Positions 3,199 through 24,751 of a stretch of DNA of 64,000 nucleotides are shown here, in pieces; position 1 is the stretch's first letter, and each line of letters opens with the position of its first letter. This stretch comes from a virus. Lineage: Duplodnaviria > Caudoviricetes. The stretch lies in the IMG/VR virus record IMGVR_UViG_3300021400_000128, positions 1 through 64,000 of that record. One strand, given 5' to 3'. The position numbers were made by a program, and so were the translations under genes. The notes beneath the pieces were generated by a model. The model was not told where the DNA came from and searched no databases. It saw only the letters and a program-made list of their open reading frames with translations.

Positions 3199-3676
3199 CC
3201 GTCCTTCTTTCTTTTTTGTATGCTTCCCATTCCGTTCCCATATTAACTTTCCATAGATGACCGTTATAAGGAACTTTCGCAACATCGAAAGATATAAAAT
3301 AAGCTATTACATCTGCTTTTATATCCGTAATGAGAACCCATTTCTTTTGTTCTTTCCACTCAACTAAAACAGGTTTACCCTCGAACTGTTTCAACTCTTC
3401 CCAGGTTAGAGGAAAATTTTCGTCTTTCCAAATTTCGTCTTTCAAAGAATTGAGTTCTGTTACTGTATCATGATATTTTTTCTCTATTGTAGGTATGTAT
3501 TCTTGATACTCCTTCAGGTAGTATAGTGCGTCCAGTTTGACAGTTGTTCCTTCAGGATCACAGCTTGGGCAATAAGGACAATCATCATTGCAATTACCTA
3601 ATTCATCAATTGGATTTAAGCAATATTCAATTCCTTTGATGGTTTCATCGAGCGTTTTTAAAGGTGTTTTCATCAT
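3185..3676 (-). CDS. hypothetical protein, paralogue family member 3
   Basis: KTLDETI, DALYYLKEYQ, PLTWEELKQFEGKPV and WEAYKKER motifs. Confidence 0.75.
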   Translation of the reverse strand: MMKTPLKTLDETIKGIEYCLNPIDELGNCNDDCPYCPSCDPEGTTVKLDALYYLKEYQEYIPTIEKKYHDTVTELNSLKDEIWKDENFPLTWEELKQFEGKPVLVEWKEQKKWVLITDIKADVIAYFISFDVAKVPYNGHLWKVNMGTEWEAYKKERRTDEIN

Positions 3677-4737
3677 TCCTCATTCTTTAACAGATATTTG
3701 TTATTGAGAACCTTCATTGATAATGAAGCACTGATCAGCGGTGAGAATACAGGTTCTGTAGGTCTGATGACGATTCCTTCTTTCTTACCACCGTTTGGAT
3801 ATTCACCGTCAGCCCGTTCAAGTAACGCCTCCACCGTTGGATACCTGGATGGAAGATCATAACCAACTTCTTCAATGGGAACTGTAAGCATATCAAGAAC
3901 TCCGCATACATTCTGTAATTCAGTAAGTCCAACACGCTTTCCATTTACACGGACATTGAATACGTACCATTCAGGTTTTGCAAGCTTCAGGCGGTTCTTT
4001 TGGATTCCCGGAGCGCATAATTCACCCTGGATCGTCAGTGTCTTGATTGCTTCGCTCTGGTATTCACATCTATCCATGAGAAGTTCCATCTTCTCTTTAT
4101 ATCCACGTTCTTTGACAAGCCGATAGAAGGAGCTGGTGTCATCATCTTTGTATTCAAAGTTATGCCCGGTGACATGGAAACCGTTCTCATCAACACTGAC
4201 AGAATGTGAAGATCCATCCATCTTTGTACTGATATAGTATTCCAGTCCTGCAAACGACTGTATCAGCTCCGGATTTTCCTGCACTCTTGTTTCATCGGTA
4301 TGTGGTACATCGTAAGGCAGCTCTCCCATGATCGTACCGCCGGTTGTAACCCGTTCCTCTATTTCCCATTTTCGCACGCCGAGGATATCTGTCACATCAT
4401 CACCAACATGATAGATTGCTTCTGTCAGTTCTGGAAACTCTGATATTGGCATTAACAAGCCTTGTGATATTTGACCACGGAGCTTTAGTGTACGAAGTTT
4501 AAATCCTTCACCCATCAAGTCAGTCTTCTTGTAACTTGTTGCTCGTAAGAATTCGAATTCGGGACGTACAGGAAGGAAGCTATCAATCTCGAAATAAACA
4601 GCATCGTTACCTTCTTTAAATTGGTCTTTTTTGATAACAACCTGCCAACCTAACACATGAGCTAATTCAAGTCGATCTGCTCCGTCAATTGGTTCAATTT
4701 TCCAAATCTTTTGAATACTGGCTAATTTGCGACTCAT
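3673..4737 (-). CDS. ATP-dependent RNA ligase, Rnl2/DRB0094-like, with an N-terminal OB-like domain
   Basis: N-terminal SRKLASIQKI..IEPIDGADRLE; nucleotidyltransferase motifs KMDGSS, QGE, EGIVIR and terminal KVLN..YLL. Confidence 0.85.
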   Translation of the reverse strand: MSRKLASIQKIWKIEPIDGADRLELAHVLGWQVVIKKDQFKEGNDAVYFEIDSFLPVRPEFEFLRATSYKKTDLMGEGFKLRTLKLRGQISQGLLMPISEFPELTEAIYHVGDDVTDILGVRKWEIEERVTTGGTIMGELPYDVPHTDETRVQENPELIQSFAGLEYYISTKMDGSSHSVSVDENGFHVTGHNFEYKDDDTSSFYRLVKERGYKEKMELLMDRCEYQSEAIKTLTIQGELCAPGIQKNRLKLAKPEWYVFNVRVNGKRVGLTELQNVCGVLDMLTVPIEEVGYDLPSRYPTVEALLERADGEYPNGGKKEGIVIRPTEPVFSPLISASLSMKVLNNKYLLKNEE

Positions 4738-8506: not shown

Positions 8507-8980
8507 TTGGGAGACAATTTTTCTGACATAAGAGCACCCTTTATTTCAATTCGATTTTTTCGAATCACTTCTAAATCACAAAGGACATTCTCCTTTCTAT
8601 GTCAAAAAAAATTCCGCAGTAAACGCGAGGGCACATCCCTCACGAACGTTCTCAAAAATGGAAGGATCCCCGTCTGCGCCGAACAGGTCTCCTTCCGTTT
8701 AGGGTATATTTTTCGGAGTTCTTTTCAAATGAAGAAATGGCGCATTATGAAAAACAACCATTGCCATTGGTTGGTATTTCCAACAGCCGCCCCGGGTGGC
8801 CGACGGCTGAAGACATTTAGAGAATTTTCAGTTTATTCAGTTGTAGTCTGATTAACAAACAAGCAATCCACCAAAGTGCAAAGTTGGCAGTGATTCAAAT
8901 AGCAAAATAAAATATTTTCTAATGTCTTATTTATTAATCTCATCCGGTAAGACACGAGCCAATTGCTCAACGATGTCCTG

Positions 8981-9053
8981 AGCCGTCAACGGGACTCGAA
9001 CCCGTATCTTCAGATTGGAAGTCTGTTGCACTGTCCAATTGTGCTATGACGGC
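8981..9053 (-). tRNA. tRNA-Gly(TCC)
   Basis: Acceptor GCCGTCA/TGACGGC; anticodon loop CTTCCAA; T arm ACGGG-TTCGAGT-CCCGT; no encoded CCA. Confidence 0.85.
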
Positions 9054-20778: not shown

Positions 20779-21438
20779 ATGAATCCGATAAAATTTTTTA
20801 GAAAAAAAGCTGGATTATCTCAATCAGACTTAGCTCAGAAAATGAATGTTGTTCAAGGTACAGTCTCGCTTTGGGAAAGTGGAAAAAGAAGTCCGTCTCT
20901 GGAAGATATCATTAAATTATCAGAGATTTTGAGTATATCACCTGAAAATCTCTTAAAGTCGGATATTTCTACGACCGAAGAAAACTTTAGAGAAATCAAT
21001 ATTAAATCTGTTCCTGAATTTACAGAAGAAGCATTTACTGTTCCTGTTGTAGCCTCACTCCGTTGTGGATATAATTCATCCGGTCATCCTATCTTTGACG
21101 TATTAAAAAAAGAAGAACTTCCACCATCTTATAAAAAAAGATATGGAGCTGATATTGTCCTGGTCAAAGCTGTTGGTGATTCCATGCTGCCATCGATCCG
21201 TCCGCGTGATATGCTGATCTGTAAACCAGGAACAGGATGGAGTAATGGCGACATCGTAGTTGTGAATGTAGATGATTCCGACACAATTAAAAGAATCTTT
21301 CATGCTAAAGATGGTGGTATCGATCTGAAACCAGACAATGAAAAATTCAAAACAATGCATTTCACACCGGAGGATTTAGTAAATTATCCGCCGCATGTTC
21401 TCGGTCGTGTCGTAAGAAACTACGGTCAGGATTTATAA
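20779..21438 (+). CDS. cI: CI-like repressor, XRE HTH + S24 peptidase
   Basis: N-terminal HTH (LSQ.DLA..M.V...TVS.WESG.R.P); CG putative autocleavage site; GDSM and KR catalytic motifs. Confidence 0.92.
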   Translation: MNPIKFFRKKAGLSQSDLAQKMNVVQGTVSLWESGKRSPSLEDIIKLSEILSISPENLLKSDISTTEENFREINIKSVPEFTEEAFTVPVVASLRCGYNSSGHPIFDVLKKEELPPSYKKRYGADIVLVKAVGDSMLPSIRPRDMLICKPGTGWSNGDIVVVNVDDSDTIKRIFHAKDGGIDLKPDNEKFKTMHFTPEDLVNYPPHVLGRVVRNYGQDL

Positions 21439-21554: not shown

Positions 21555-21597
21555 CTCTTAATCAGCGTGTTCGGGGTTCGAGTCCCCGATGGGTCAC
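21555..21597 (+). other. attP core: 3' half of tRNA-Lys(CTT)
   Basis: CTCTTAA anticodon loop, ATCAG, T arm TCGGGG-TTCGAGT-CCCCGA, TGGGTCA; no 5' half; lies directly upstream of the integrase. Confidence 0.8.
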
Positions 21598-21698
21598 TTA
21601 ATTTTTTAAGCTCCGCCAAGATTCTTAAAAAATTAGTCGTAATATTGATTAATTTGCACTTGTTAACCCACTTAATTATTATTTAAGGTAGGTAAGCA

Positions 21699-22652
21699 AT
21701 GGCAAAGGTTATCCGAAAAAACACGCTGACACCTGAAAAAACCAAAATTTCAGATGCGTATGAGTTATTCTTAGGTTCCAGGAAGACTTCTTGCGCTGAT
21801 AAGACGTATAAAATTTATCACGATTTAGGCAGTCGGTTTATTGTTCCCTCTCTTACAGCTTTATCGGTAACAGGTTACATGGATGATGTAACTGCTGTTG
21901 TATTGCGTGCATCTATAAATGAGTACGATCAATCTCATACGAAAGGTGGAGCATGGTTTATATACCGTCATTTGAAAGTCTTTATTAATTGGTATTGGGA
22001 AGAAAATGACATTGAAACGCCTAATCCAATTAAAAAGATAAAAATCAAGAAACCGAAAACCCCACCGAAGCAAGGTATCACCCGTGAAGAAATTGATAAA
22101 TTACTGAAGGCAGCGAAGGAGCAGATTTTTCCTGAAAGAGATACTGCAATGCTTATGATTCTGTCAGATACAGGGATTCGTCTATCTTCTTTAATGGGAT
22201 TAAAGATCGGTGATGTAAATGTTGCTAAGTCTCAATTTGTAGTCTTTGAGAAAGACCAGGATTTTCATATAAAATCTTTCGGAACGTCGACCGGGAAAGC
22301 AATAAAGAAATATTTGAATTGTCTTGAAGATACCAATCCAGAAGATCCATTTTGGTTCAAAACAGATGGAAACCCAATGACAGAAGCAGGAATGAAACAA
22401 GCTTTGCGCCGATTATGTAAGGATGCTGGAATCGAGCTTCACCTTTTTCATGATTTCCGCCGATTCTATGGTTTGGAATTGTACAAAAAGACTCATGATA
22501 TCTATTTTGTTTCCCGTGCTTTGGATCATAAAGATATTGAGGTAACAAAAAGATATCTTGCTATTGATGCAATAGAAGACGCAGAAGCTATTAGATTCAT
22601 GTCACCTATGGATAACAAGGGTACAGTCACGGTAAAGCGCAAAAAAAGATAA
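21699..22652 (+). CDS. int: tyrosine integrase
   Basis: DTGIR, HDFRR, LDH and TKRY catalytic residues. Confidence 0.92.
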   Translation: MAKVIRKNTLTPEKTKISDAYELFLGSRKTSCADKTYKIYHDLGSRFIVPSLTALSVTGYMDDVTAVVLRASINEYDQSHTKGGAWFIYRHLKVFINWYWEENDIETPNPIKKIKIKKPKTPPKQGITREEIDKLLKAAKEQIFPERDTAMLMILSDTGIRLSSLMGLKIGDVNVAKSQFVVFEKDQDFHIKSFGTSTGKAIKKYLNCLEDTNPEDPFWFKTDGNPMTEAGMKQALRRLCKDAGIELHLFHDFRRFYGLELYKKTHDIYFVSRALDHKDIEVTKRYLAIDAIEDAEAIRFMSPMDNKGTVTVKRKKR

Positions 22653-22794: not shown

Positions 22795-22828
22795 AAAAAA
22801 AAGCACCTCATTACAAGGTGCTTTATTT
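22795..22828 (-). terminator. terminator closing the tRNA transcript
   Basis: AAAGCACCT..AGGTGCTTT with a T-tract on the minus strand. Confidence 0.55.
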
Positions 22829-22935
22829 GGAATCCATAGAAGGTCGAAAGGTAAGTAGTTGAAAGACCGACGGATTCTTATGCCATCGTAATGGCTATTT
22901 CAGAAGCTATCATGAACAATGATCAATGATCTTAG

Positions 22936-23019
22936 TGGCGATTGGTGGACTCGCACCACCGAAGGGCGTTGCCCGGCTGATTTACAGTCAGATCCCTTTG
23001 CTGCTCGGGACAAACCGCC
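22936..23019 (-). tRNA. tRNA-Tyr(GTA)
   Basis: Anticodon loop CTGTAAA, long variable arm, T loop TGCGAGT (variant), acceptor GGCGGTT/AATCGCC. Confidence 0.8.
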
Positions 23020-23067
23020 ATAAAAGATGATTACCGTGCATACCTATGTCACAATGGCAGTAAACTC

Positions 23068-23141
23068 GACCACCAACGGCAGGATTCGAACGTGCTCCTG
23101 TAATCATCCACTGCATCATTCTGGTATGATACCACCCGCGC
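23068..23141 (-). pseudogene. degenerate tRNA-like relic
   Basis: T-arm-like GCACG-TTCGAAT-CCTGC, but no coherent D or anticodon arm. Confidence 0.35.
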
Positions 23142-23184
23142 TAACATTATTTTTAAGCAGGACTGAATCGCGCTTGTCCTTCTG

Positions 23185-23272
23185 CGGGTGGTGCAGGATT
23201 CGAACCTGCGATGGGCTATTCACCATAGATAGTTTCGATGCATCCGTCTTCAGCCGCTCGACCAACCCACCC
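23185..23272 (-). tRNA. tRNA-Ser(CGA), possibly degenerate
   Basis: GGTCGAGCGG D arm, CGA anticodon in an imperfect stem, long variable arm, GCAGG-TTCGAAT-CCTGC, G discriminator. Confidence 0.65.
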
Positions 23273-23310
23273 TAAAGCGACATTTTTGCGGAAAATATCG
23301 CTAAACCGTC

Positions 23311-23383
23311 GGATGATATAGTCACAACACAATTAGGGCCACCGTCGGTCGTGAACACGGCATGAAGCCGAATTTCGTCATCC
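23311..23383 (-). ncRNA. tRNA-3'-associated three-way-junction element, copy 1
   Basis: GGATGA/TCATCC closing stem enclosing CGGC-TTCAT-GCCG and TCACGAC/GTTGTGA hairpins. Confidence 0.55.
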
Positions 23384-23388
23384 TTTAG

Positions 23389-23461
23389 CCGGGCAGATTG
23401 GCTTTGCACCAATGACCTTCTCTTCTTCAGAGAGACGCTCTACTGACTGAGCTACCACCCG
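23389..23461 (-). tRNA. tRNA-Phe(GAA)
   Basis: GCTC/GAGC D stem, TCTCT-CTGAAGA-AGAGA anticodon arm, variant T loop TGCAAAG. Confidence 0.8.
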
Positions 23462-23535
23462 TAAAGCGACACTTTTTTGCGCTGCATGGAAAGTCTCGCT
23501 GAACCACTGCCTTAATGGAGGTCTAATGCGCATAC

Positions 23536-23594
23536 GGATGATATAGTCACCACCGGGGCACGTGAACACGGCATGAAGCCGAATTTCGTCATCC
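23536..23594 (-). ncRNA. tRNA-3'-associated three-way-junction element, copy 2
   Basis: 36-nt and 16-nt blocks identical to copy 1; different third-hairpin loop. Confidence 0.55.
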
Positions 23595-23597
23595 TTG

Positions 23598-23670
23598 TTG
23601 CGGTGGATTGGAATCGAACCAATGTCCTTCTGGTTATGAGCCAGACGCGCTGCCTCTGCGCTACCCCGCA
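23598..23670 (-). tRNA. tRNA-Met(CAT), initiator-like
   Basis: TGCGGGG..CCGCAA acceptor, TCTGG-CTCATAA-CCAGA, ATTGG-TTCGATT-CCAAT. Confidence 0.8.
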
Positions 23671-23773
23671 ATGAAGCTTGACTTTTTTAGGGAAAGTCAA
23701 GCTGAAAACCCTCCAAACTAACAACAAACTTAAGAAAGGAATGCCTAAATGAACGAAATCGCTATTTAGCTAA

Positions 23774-23860
23774 ATCCTGTGTGCGGACTCGAACCGCAAT
23801 TGATGGTATTCACCATCTTCACACCTGATCCAGTTGCCTTTCTCACTGCTCTCACAGGAT
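23774..23860 (-). ncRNA. tRNA-like element with aberrant D/anticodon region
   Basis: ATCCTGTG/CACAGGAT closing stem, GATGGT-GAAT-ACCATC arm, TGCGG-TTCGAGT-CCGCA T arm. Confidence 0.5.
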
Positions 23861-23864
23861 CATC

Positions 23865-24385
23865 TTATTTTTCGTCCGATATGGTAAAGATGTAAACCGT
23901 ATCAGACTGGCTCATCAAATTCGCGATTTCGATGAGCTTTGTTCTCCGGTCTGGATTTGCACCAGATGTTGCCTTGGGTGTACTGCGCCTTACTGTACAA
24001 TGCTGCCGGTGGTGATAACGCTTTCGCTCCCACTAACATCAGCCAGATTCGAACTGACTTTTCCCAAGACTTCTCCTTTTTGAGTACCGGAGAATGCAAG
24101 CGTTTTGTAGTGTCATATCATCGGAGTTGATTTCACACTTCCAGGCAAGCTTACTTTTCCTTTATTATCCTTTGTTTGGATAATCGATCAGTTTTGTTTT
24201 CTCTGTCCCAACTCTGCTCGGTCACATTTCTGCTCCTATCGTCTTTTGCGTCCAATGGGCAACTTAGCGTACTCGGCAACTTAGGGTACTGATAACGGGT
24301 AACTGATTCACCCTTAGACCAGAATCGGTACGCCGTAAGAGAGAGAACCCTTTTGGAGAGTCAAGATCGACGTTTCCGGTCAATG
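23865..24385 (-). ncRNA. candidate large structured non-coding RNA
   Basis: No credible ORF; many hairpins, nested long-range helices and two T-loop hairpins; starts just downstream of TGCTATAAT. Confidence 0.55.
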
Positions 24386-24387
24386 TT

Positions 24388-24422
24388 TATATTATAGCAG
24401 ATTGTTTTGATTTTGTACAGAT
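24388..24422 (-). promoter_or_regulatory. extended -10 promoter for the ncRNA/tRNA unit
   Basis: TGCTATAAT at about 24399-24391. Confidence 0.55.
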
Positions 24423-24751
24423 ATTAGTTTTAATGTTCTTTATTCGATTACGAATTAATATAATAACTGTTATCATATTTTTGTACTGTGATTTTAAATT
24501 TATCGAAATCGAAACGTTTAAAAATGAGTTGAATATTTTCTACTCAAAAAATTCAACTCATTTTTGAAAAGTGTCGTTGATTTTCAATTTAATAATTTCT
24601 TGTATGATAACTATTGTTTTTTATACAAAAAAAGAGTCTGTTTCCAAGCTCGTAAATTTGATTAGCTGTCTCCTAAATTACATCATATCTCGCGCCAGGA
24701 TCAATTCTGCTGGCTTTTGTATATTCAGATAAACAACTTTACACATTCGAT

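Follow-up and report, generated by a model that had tools for sequence, protein, structure and literature searches.

The DNA analysed here (the window, 64,000 nt) covers the opening 64 kb of a 136,915-bp (137-kb) virus record with direct terminal repeats. The phage is temperate, with a tyrosine integrase, a CI-like repressor, and Erf and tail-fibre genes near the tRNA region. A gene-free stretch of the minus strand, lying between a promoter-like site and a terminator-like hairpin, is occupied by a tRNA operon and by two copies of a folded element. The features are given below in coordinate order; the bit scores of the two copies come from a covariance model, R1, that we built from five element copies.

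3673-4737, minus strand: DRB0094-family RNA ligase (TIGR02306, 150.8 bits against a cut-off of 151.15, over the full model length)
20779-21438: CI-like repressor
21555-21642: attP core
21699-22652, plus strand: tyrosine integrase
22824-22800, minus strand: terminator-like hairpin and U tract, end of the operon
22935-23019, minus strand: tRNA-Tyr (ARAGORN, Rfam)
23184-23272, minus strand: tRNA-Ser (CGA) (ARAGORN, Rfam), downstream of copy B
23276-23302, minus strand: leader hairpin, starting 8 nt after copy B and ending 3 nt before tRNA-Ser
23383 to 23311, minus strand: element copy B, 73 nt, after tRNA-Phe (R1, 79.6 bits)
23388-23461, minus strand: tRNA-Phe (GAA) (ARAGORN; Rfam, 57.3 bits), T-loop UGCAAAG, directly upstream of copy B
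23465-23500, minus strand: leader hairpin AGCGAGACUUU ... AAAGUGUCGCU, ending 3 nt before tRNA-Phe
23501-23535, minus strand: variable spacer between copy A and the next leader hairpin
23594 to 23536, minus strand: element copy A, 59 nt, after tRNA-Met (R1, 86.9 bits)
23597-23670, minus strand: tRNA-Met (CAU) (ARAGORN; Rfam, 59.6 bits), directly upstream of copy A
about 23676-23704: leader hairpin before tRNA-Met
24419-24391, minus strand: promoter-like site of the tRNA operon, TGTACA-17-TATAAT with TG, also present in the related metagenomic locus L012

All five tRNAs of the window (one at 8980-9053 and four in 22935-23670) lack an encoded CCA, as had been claimed from the sequence; the discriminator is followed by C and then by A or U. 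The bacterial tRNA-Lys at the integration site (L006) likewise has no CCA and follows the same post-discriminator pattern. The 88-nt attP core matches, at 93% identity, the flank and 3' part of a bacterial tRNA-Lys(CTT) gene; this indicates that the phage group integrates at tRNA-Lys(CTT), a gene that adjoins the integrase homologues in L006 and L011. Many tRNAs of the phage group (the tRNA-Phe of the window; Met, Tyr, and Thr of L008) have a T-loop of the form UGCAAAN with G at the U55 position, and in tRNA-Met the acceptor end is U1-A72.

A hairpin stands ahead of each tRNA in these arrays, whether or not the array has the element, and stops 3-5 nt short of the tRNA 5' end. These leader hairpins have an A/U-rich top and are also seen at L008 3769-3792, in L012, and in L032. 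Their stems covary between lineages: GCUUGAC/GUCAAGC vs GCAAAAC/GUUUUGC before tRNA-Met, and AGCGAGAC vs AGCCAGAC before tRNA-Phe, where the stem reads AGCCAGAC/GUGUGGCU in L012 and is also changed in L021. The leader hairpin is a conserved leader structure of the arrays of this phage group.

Three further segments of the minus strand (23067-23140, 23774-23860, and about 23965-24095) are tRNA-like, with good T arms, and are called by neither ARAGORN nor Rfam; the first extends in L012 into an apparent 5' half of a Ser-type tRNA. All three resemble tRNA genes that have decayed or been split. A separate hairpin, GCUCAUC-(GAAAUCGCGAAUUU)-GAUGAGC, lies at 23910-23937 (minus strand), 4 nt past a tRNA-like T arm, and its stem covaries in L012 (GCUUG.../...CAAGC) with the loop unchanged.

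The element and its homologues

Copy A is a three-way junction made of P1 (GGAUGA/UCAUCC), P2 (CGGC-UUCAU-GCCG), and P3 (UCAC, 11 nt, GUGA), with the joining strands CGAAAUU (J1/2), UGU (J2/3), and CUAUA (J3/1). Copy B has the same P1, P2, and junction strands, and its P3 is a 7-bp UCACGAC/GUUGUGA helix with a 19-nt loop. The minimum-energy fold of copy A contains P1, P2, and part of P3, and that of copy B is the three-way junction, with z = -2.1 when the downstream hairpin is included. In the window a 33-nt core pattern has two exact matches, where 100 shuffles give an expectation of 0, and neither BLAST nor the covariance model finds a third copy anywhere in the 136,915-bp genome. The original prediction of a three-way-junction RNA present twice on the minus strand, with identical blocks of 36 and 16 nt and a third hairpin that varies around a retained TCAC/GTGA stem, is therefore borne out on each point: both blocks are there, and all differences between the copies (four substitutions and a 14-nt indel) fall within P3, with UCAC/GUGA kept in both.

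The distance between tRNA and element depends on where the tRNA is taken to end. With the Rfam ends (23599 and 23389) the element starts 4 and 5 nt after the discriminators of tRNA-Met and tRNA-Phe, and with the ARAGORN ends (23597 and 23388) it starts 2 and 4 nt after them. The gap of 3 nt first given for tRNA-Met is obtained with the U1-A72 reading, a reading under which the L012 homologue has a perfect 7-bp acceptor stem; the 5 nt given for tRNA-Phe agrees with the Rfam end and not with the ARAGORN end.

Homologues were reached through integrase relatives on metagenomic contigs from ruminant samples and through a scan of JGI metagenomes. The element occurs in no fewer than four further metagenomic phage lineages, whose integrase identities are 64-99%. 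In L004/L005 (integrase 99% identical) the array reads Met-A-Phe-B-Trp; in L012-L014 (integrase 64% identical) it reads Met-A-Phe and in L021 (JGI scan) Met-A-Phe-Ser-Gln-Tyr, in both cases with no element behind Phe. The remaining copy, L022 (JGI scan), keeps every invariant base and has a U-A pair in P2, and it has no tRNA upstream. In its place are a promoter (TTTTCA-16-TAAAAT with TG), which ends 20 nt upstream of the element and from which initiation is expected about 14 nt upstream, and a divergent gene, by eye a serine recombinase, which begins about 27 nt from the element. Downstream of this copy lie a leader hairpin, tRNA-Tyr, and a terminator.

These homologues make the element more than a recent local duplication, and they qualify the description of it as glued to tRNA 3' ends. 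An upstream tRNA, at a gap of 2-5 nt, is present for six of the seven distinct copies, so the description suits most cases and is not general. Because the L022 copy follows a promoter and not a tRNA, the element is not strictly a tRNA 3' trailer. What is constant is the downstream side, where all seven distinct copies are followed by a hairpin and a tRNA. The identity of that tRNA varies, being Ser(CGA) behind the copy-B position in the window, Trp(CCA) in L004, and Tyr behind the L022 copy. Copy B, hairpin, and tRNA together form a cassette-like indel (window 23177-23380; L004 7217-7400) that is absent from L012 and from L021 (296-310) and has AAGGA repeats at both borders.

Beyond these lineages the searches returned little. 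The related arrays L008-10, L026, L028, L030, and L032 contain no element, which indicates that it is dispensable for tRNA expression and for having a tRNA array, and the loci of the integrase relatives P0002, P0006, P0007, P0008, P0009, P0012, and P0013 also lack it. Exact and degenerate pattern scans of IMG/VR found 0 copies outside this genome. Against 50,697 GenBank phage records, blastn with the 901-nt array region returned tRNA-Met look-alikes only, and with copy B nothing. A pattern scan of GTDB species genomes gave a single chance hit (L024) with neither a model match nor a tRNA, and the metagenome hit L023 was set aside as a chance match, its model fit being weak and partial. IMG/VR scans with the tRNA-Phe and tRNA-Met of this array yielded one unrelated 17-tRNA array (L025) and 0 hits, and related-locus searches with the integrase and a 692-aa tail protein as queries found no close relatives. 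Across the collections searched, the element is confined to a small clade of phages.

With R1, every homologue is recovered at 76-87 bits, and no other sequence rises above noise. Across the seven distinct sequences, 98 of 98 pair cells are standard pairs, vs 15-62% when the partners are slid, and the minimum-energy fold of every homologue is the same three-way junction. P2 pair 2 is G-C in five sequences, C-G in L012, and U-A in L022; at P2 pair 3, G-C and G-U both occur; P3 has G-U, U-A, or a mismatch as its fifth pair, and as a whole is 4-7 bp long with loops that are unrelated between homologues. Invariant in all copies are P1 (GGAUGA/UCAUCC), UCAC/GUGA, GAAA, UGU, and CUAUA. Read from the other strand, the G-U pairs would turn into A-C mismatches, which places the structure on the tRNA-sense strand. 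The covariation is thin, amounting to one fully compensatory pair among seven distinct sequences, and 9 of 500 shuffles reach the observed score. Two alternative pairings were tried and rejected: the L2 loop with the P1 5' strand, which is broken by UCCAU variants, and a two-pair extension of P2 (A11-U29, U12-G28), which is broken by CGAAAAU variants.

Between the window and L012, identity is 87% over tRNA-Met, 80% over the element (about 90% outside the P3 loop, by hand count from the alignment), and about 51% over the next 60 nt after copy A; by this measure conservation of the element is close to that of the tRNAs, in contrast to the decay of the flanking spacer. The compensatory change in P2, the sense-strand G-U pairs, and the common fold of the homologues uphold the prediction of a conserved structured element, and from these sequence comparisons we conclude that the element is real and under selection. 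It is, on the same grounds, a conserved folded RNA module of 59-73 bases in the tRNA-operon spacers of a small group of ruminant-gut phages.

The window and L004 are 100% identical over tRNA-Met and over the 60 nt past copy A, and their copies A differ at three unpaired positions. At two of these, both within the 36-nt block, copy A of the window has the copy B letter, and L021 has the L004 form there; the third lies in the P3 loop. Since copy A of the window shares copy B letters where L004 and L021 differ, the block is best read, from the letters compared, as the product of recent gene conversion between copies A and B and not as a gauge of constraint. On this reading the block would not be a sign of deep conservation.

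Comparison with described RNA families

A cmscan of 22800-23900 on both strands against Rfam 15, with permissive filters and E <= 10, returned the tRNAs and five chance-level matches, none of which sits on the element alone. In particular, there is no covariance-model match to the twister, twister-sister, pistol, hatchet, or hairpin ribozymes in this 1.1-kb region. The earlier judgement by eye that the element does not fit the HDV, hammerhead, twister, or pistol consensus is thus supported, since neither a ribozyme nor any other Rfam family apart from the tRNAs is matched above chance level, and so is its description as undescribed, since no library family covers the sequence or fold. In a 2026 preprint on some 150 new ribozyme classes, there is no mention of tRNA or of phage.

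Two ribozyme folds were also compared by hand. The nested double pseudoknot of HDV-like and theta ribozymes (P1, P1.1, P2, P3, P4), in which the P1 3' strand comes immediately behind P3, does not fit the element, whose UGUUCAC after P2 is not complementary to GGAUGA. For the hammerhead, GAAA is present and CUGANGA is absent (the element reads AGGAUGA), also in the permuted orders (PMC10085705), and there is no Rfam match. Across homologues the junction strands read YGAAAWU, UGU, and CUAUA (7, 3, and 5 nt).

Several identities other than a ribozyme were rejected as well. A tRNA, a tRNA-like RNA, or an anticodon-loop mimic is disfavoured by the lack of any ARAGORN or Rfam RF00005 call and by a layout of three helices with 5 + 7 unpaired bases beside P1. 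As an intrinsic terminator the element has no U tract after P1, and a terminator scan lists none there. As a miniature transposable element it has only a 6-bp inverted repeat, the flanks differ (CAA/GUA and UAAA/GAC), and both copies lie in the tRNA operon. A peptide gene would have to start at the AUG in GGAUGA, which has no suitable spacing to AAGGA; the ATG frames end differently in copies A and B, and on hand reading the P2 changes in L012 recode the peptide yet keep the pairing.

Transcription and candidate functions

Nineteen of the 20 listed sequencing runs that contain parts of 22800-24450 are recorded as RNA, coming from animal-gut metatranscriptomes, several of them labelled bovine or sheep, in eleven studies in all. 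We examined contigs from four runs of four studies; such contigs show presence in RNA libraries and not RNA ends or levels. A long leader RNA (about 23941-24354, minus strand) is covered in all four runs at depths of 2.2-36, and in run X1 its depth is up to 13 times that of the tRNA part. This long non-coding leader holds T-loop-like hairpins that ARAGORN does not call. Run X1 also has a 526-nt contig (22829-23354, depth 2.7) that extends from near the terminator through tRNA-Tyr and tRNA-Ser into copy B; its end at 23354 was rejected as an RNA end because it lies inside the 36-nt repeat, and hence is an assembly break. Copy A is not covered by the contigs of three of the four runs, and in the fourth (X10) is matched only by a 27-nt piece of an L022-type contig. 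An L022-type contig from sheep gut has its first base at element base 5 and continues across the hairpin and tRNA-Tyr to 26 nt beyond. This start, the one hint of an RNA end in the data, is explained by the L022 promoter about 14 nt upstream as well as it would be by cleavage.

Bacterial pre-tRNAs without CCA are cut by RNase Z after the discriminator and by RNase P at the tRNA 5' end, and CCA is then added. With neither the phage tRNAs nor the host tRNA-Lys encoding CCA, the precursor would be expected to be cut in this way, after its discriminators (RNase Z type) and at its tRNA 5' ends (RNase P), and by these rules we infer that each inter-tRNA stretch would be released as one fragment. The cuts would free an RNA of about 110-135 nt comprising junction, spacer, and leader hairpin and structured at both ends, with the tight three-way junction first and a hairpin followed by UUUA last. 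For L022, the 5' end of the fragment would instead be set where transcription starts, about 14 nt upstream.

Our preferred reading, to which we assign a probability of roughly 0.38, is that the element is a sequence-specifically recognised spacer RNA that would be excised by tRNA-processing enzymes and would have a putative protein or RNA partner. The leader hairpins offer a useful contrast here. They share operon and strand with the element, and both structures are conserved across the phage group; however, leader hairpins stand before every tRNA, occur in all related arrays, and covary freely, whereas the element never exceeds two copies in a genome, is limited to some of the lineages, and has invariant stems. 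That leader stems change freely while P1, the base of P3, and the junction bases do not suggests a junction that serves as a specific binding surface and does more than stabilise, although the invariant junction bases would fit a catalytic core equally well. The excised-RNA reading draws support from the sense orientation of the element between the operon promoter and terminator, from the retained P2 pairing and the like folds of the homologues, and from the RNA contigs that cover the 3' part of copy B to near the terminator and, in the L022 type, the element to tRNA-Tyr. It is weakened by the narrow distribution, by the thin covariation, and by the absence of copy A from the contigs of three runs.

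Other readings share part of this evidence. The element may instead act in cis as a determinant of the precursor, its junction being bound by a host or phage endonuclease or serving as a 5' cap against 5'-end-dependent decay, which we consider possible but somewhat doubtful. Its placement always upstream of a leader hairpin and tRNA, 3-14 nt from the predicted 5' end of the fragment, would suit such a role, as would the fact that this predicted end lies near the element whether it arises from a tRNA cut or from a promoter. Sequence invariance suits recognition by a protein; a simple protective hairpin, by contrast, should covary freely, as the leader hairpins do. It also counts against a cis-acting role that the element stands behind only two tRNAs of the array, that sister arrays have none, and that no nuclease came up as a candidate. 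A new class of small self-cleaving ribozyme, an analogue of theta that would cut near its own 5' edge and leave the tRNA with a trailer of 3-5 nt, appears unlikely. In size and three-way layout the element does resemble a small ribozyme, its junction bases being invariant and its distal P3 variable, and it lies 3-5 nt behind two tRNAs; yet this spacing is looser than that of the 77% of tRNA-associated theta ribozymes that lie within +/-1 nt of the tRNA (PMC10879173). Similarly, the start of the L022-type contig at base 5 could be taken for a cleavage product, but the promoter accounts for it and in L022 no tRNA lies upstream that could be freed. The phage encodes a DRB0094-family RNA ligase, and this family occurs in 54.5% of theta-ribozyme phages, a 140-fold enrichment (PMC10879173); by analogy, the ligase is a parallel with those phages and not evidence of cleavage. 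Searches of the phage genes found no CCA-adding enzyme, RtcB, or 2H-family (2'-5' RNA ligase-like) phosphoesterase, and the lack of a Rfam ribozyme match at E <= 10, the missing CUGANGA, and the unfitting HDV strand order (hand check) tell in the same direction. The wider proposition, that a new self-cleaving ribozyme class or an RNA read by a nuclease with single-site precision punctuates tRNA operons 3' of CCA-less tRNAs and arose independently of theta, is likewise improbable in our view.

The mobility of the cassette bears on a further reading, in which the element is a selfish or neutral repeat without RNA function that is kept as a homology patch for the shuffling of tRNA cassettes. The AAGGA-bounded segment 23177-23380 that is missing from L012 and L021, the exchange of Ser, Trp, or Tyr behind copy B in different phages, the homogenisation of the window copies over 36 nt, and the L022 rearrangement breakpoint, which falls exactly at the 5' end of the element, would all be natural outcomes of such a repeat. 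This makes a poor candidate nonetheless, given the compensatory and G-U-compatible changes in P2, conservation equal to that of the tRNAs beside a spacer at 51% identity, the lack of a target-site duplication, and a number of copies that never exceeds two per genome. A site acting at the DNA level, whether attP, a promoter, or a protein-binding operator, is very improbable: a promoter scan does flag TTCACG-17-TATCAT inside copy A, and the integrase gene is 0.7 kb away, but the spacing of these hexamers shifts by 10-14 nt between copies, attP lies elsewhere (21555-21642), and the G-U pairs become A-C mismatches on the other strand.

Relation to known systems

The usual view of a phage tRNA array is of tRNAs simply strung together; in the present arrays, the spacers also contain conserved RNA modules, and the element combines an invariant core with a variable arm, as is typical of RNAs with a specific tertiary fold. 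Its significance is bounded by its occurrence in few ruminant-gut phage lineages and by its thin covariation. Small RNAs tied to tRNAs include the species 1 and 2 RNAs of phage T4, the 3'ETS-leuZ of E. coli, and the tRNA-miRNA units of the herpesvirus MHV68; T4 small stable RNAs and spacer-derived small RNAs are precedents for structured RNA embedded near tRNAs. Like these, the element is a structured non-tRNA RNA that lies in one transcription unit with tRNAs and whose release by tRNA-processing enzymes is predicted, although it has no sequence or structural relation to them. If it is a released small RNA, as in the reading we prefer, it would be a further case in which phage tRNA processing yields a non-tRNA RNA, possibly aimed at the host.

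If cleavage were instead the true activity, this would be a new ribozyme class of about 59 nt and a second, structurally unrelated route to the removal of tRNA 3' trailers in gut phages. The nearest likeness in layout is to the hammerhead, including its permuted types (PMC10085705), which likewise joins three helices in ~50-60 nt and has a GAAA strand and a distal stem that varies; the element differs in having UGU and CUAUA where the hammerhead has GAAA and the cleavage-site base. In genomic setting the closest parallel is with theta ribozymes, minimal HDV-like ribozymes that lie beside the tRNA genes of gut Caudoviricetes (PMC10879173). The element too is found in gut phages, in sense orientation and directly behind CCA-less phage tRNAs, and this phage, like those with theta ribozymes, encodes a DRB0094-family RNA ligase. 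Unlike theta, it is a plain three-way junction with a tRNA gap of 3-5 nt, and one homologue has no tRNA upstream. A structured non-tRNA RNA beside phage tRNAs is thus of a known kind, exemplified by theta ribozymes (PMC10879173); what is new here, on the evidence of the Rfam 15 search, is a fold and sequence that match no described family.
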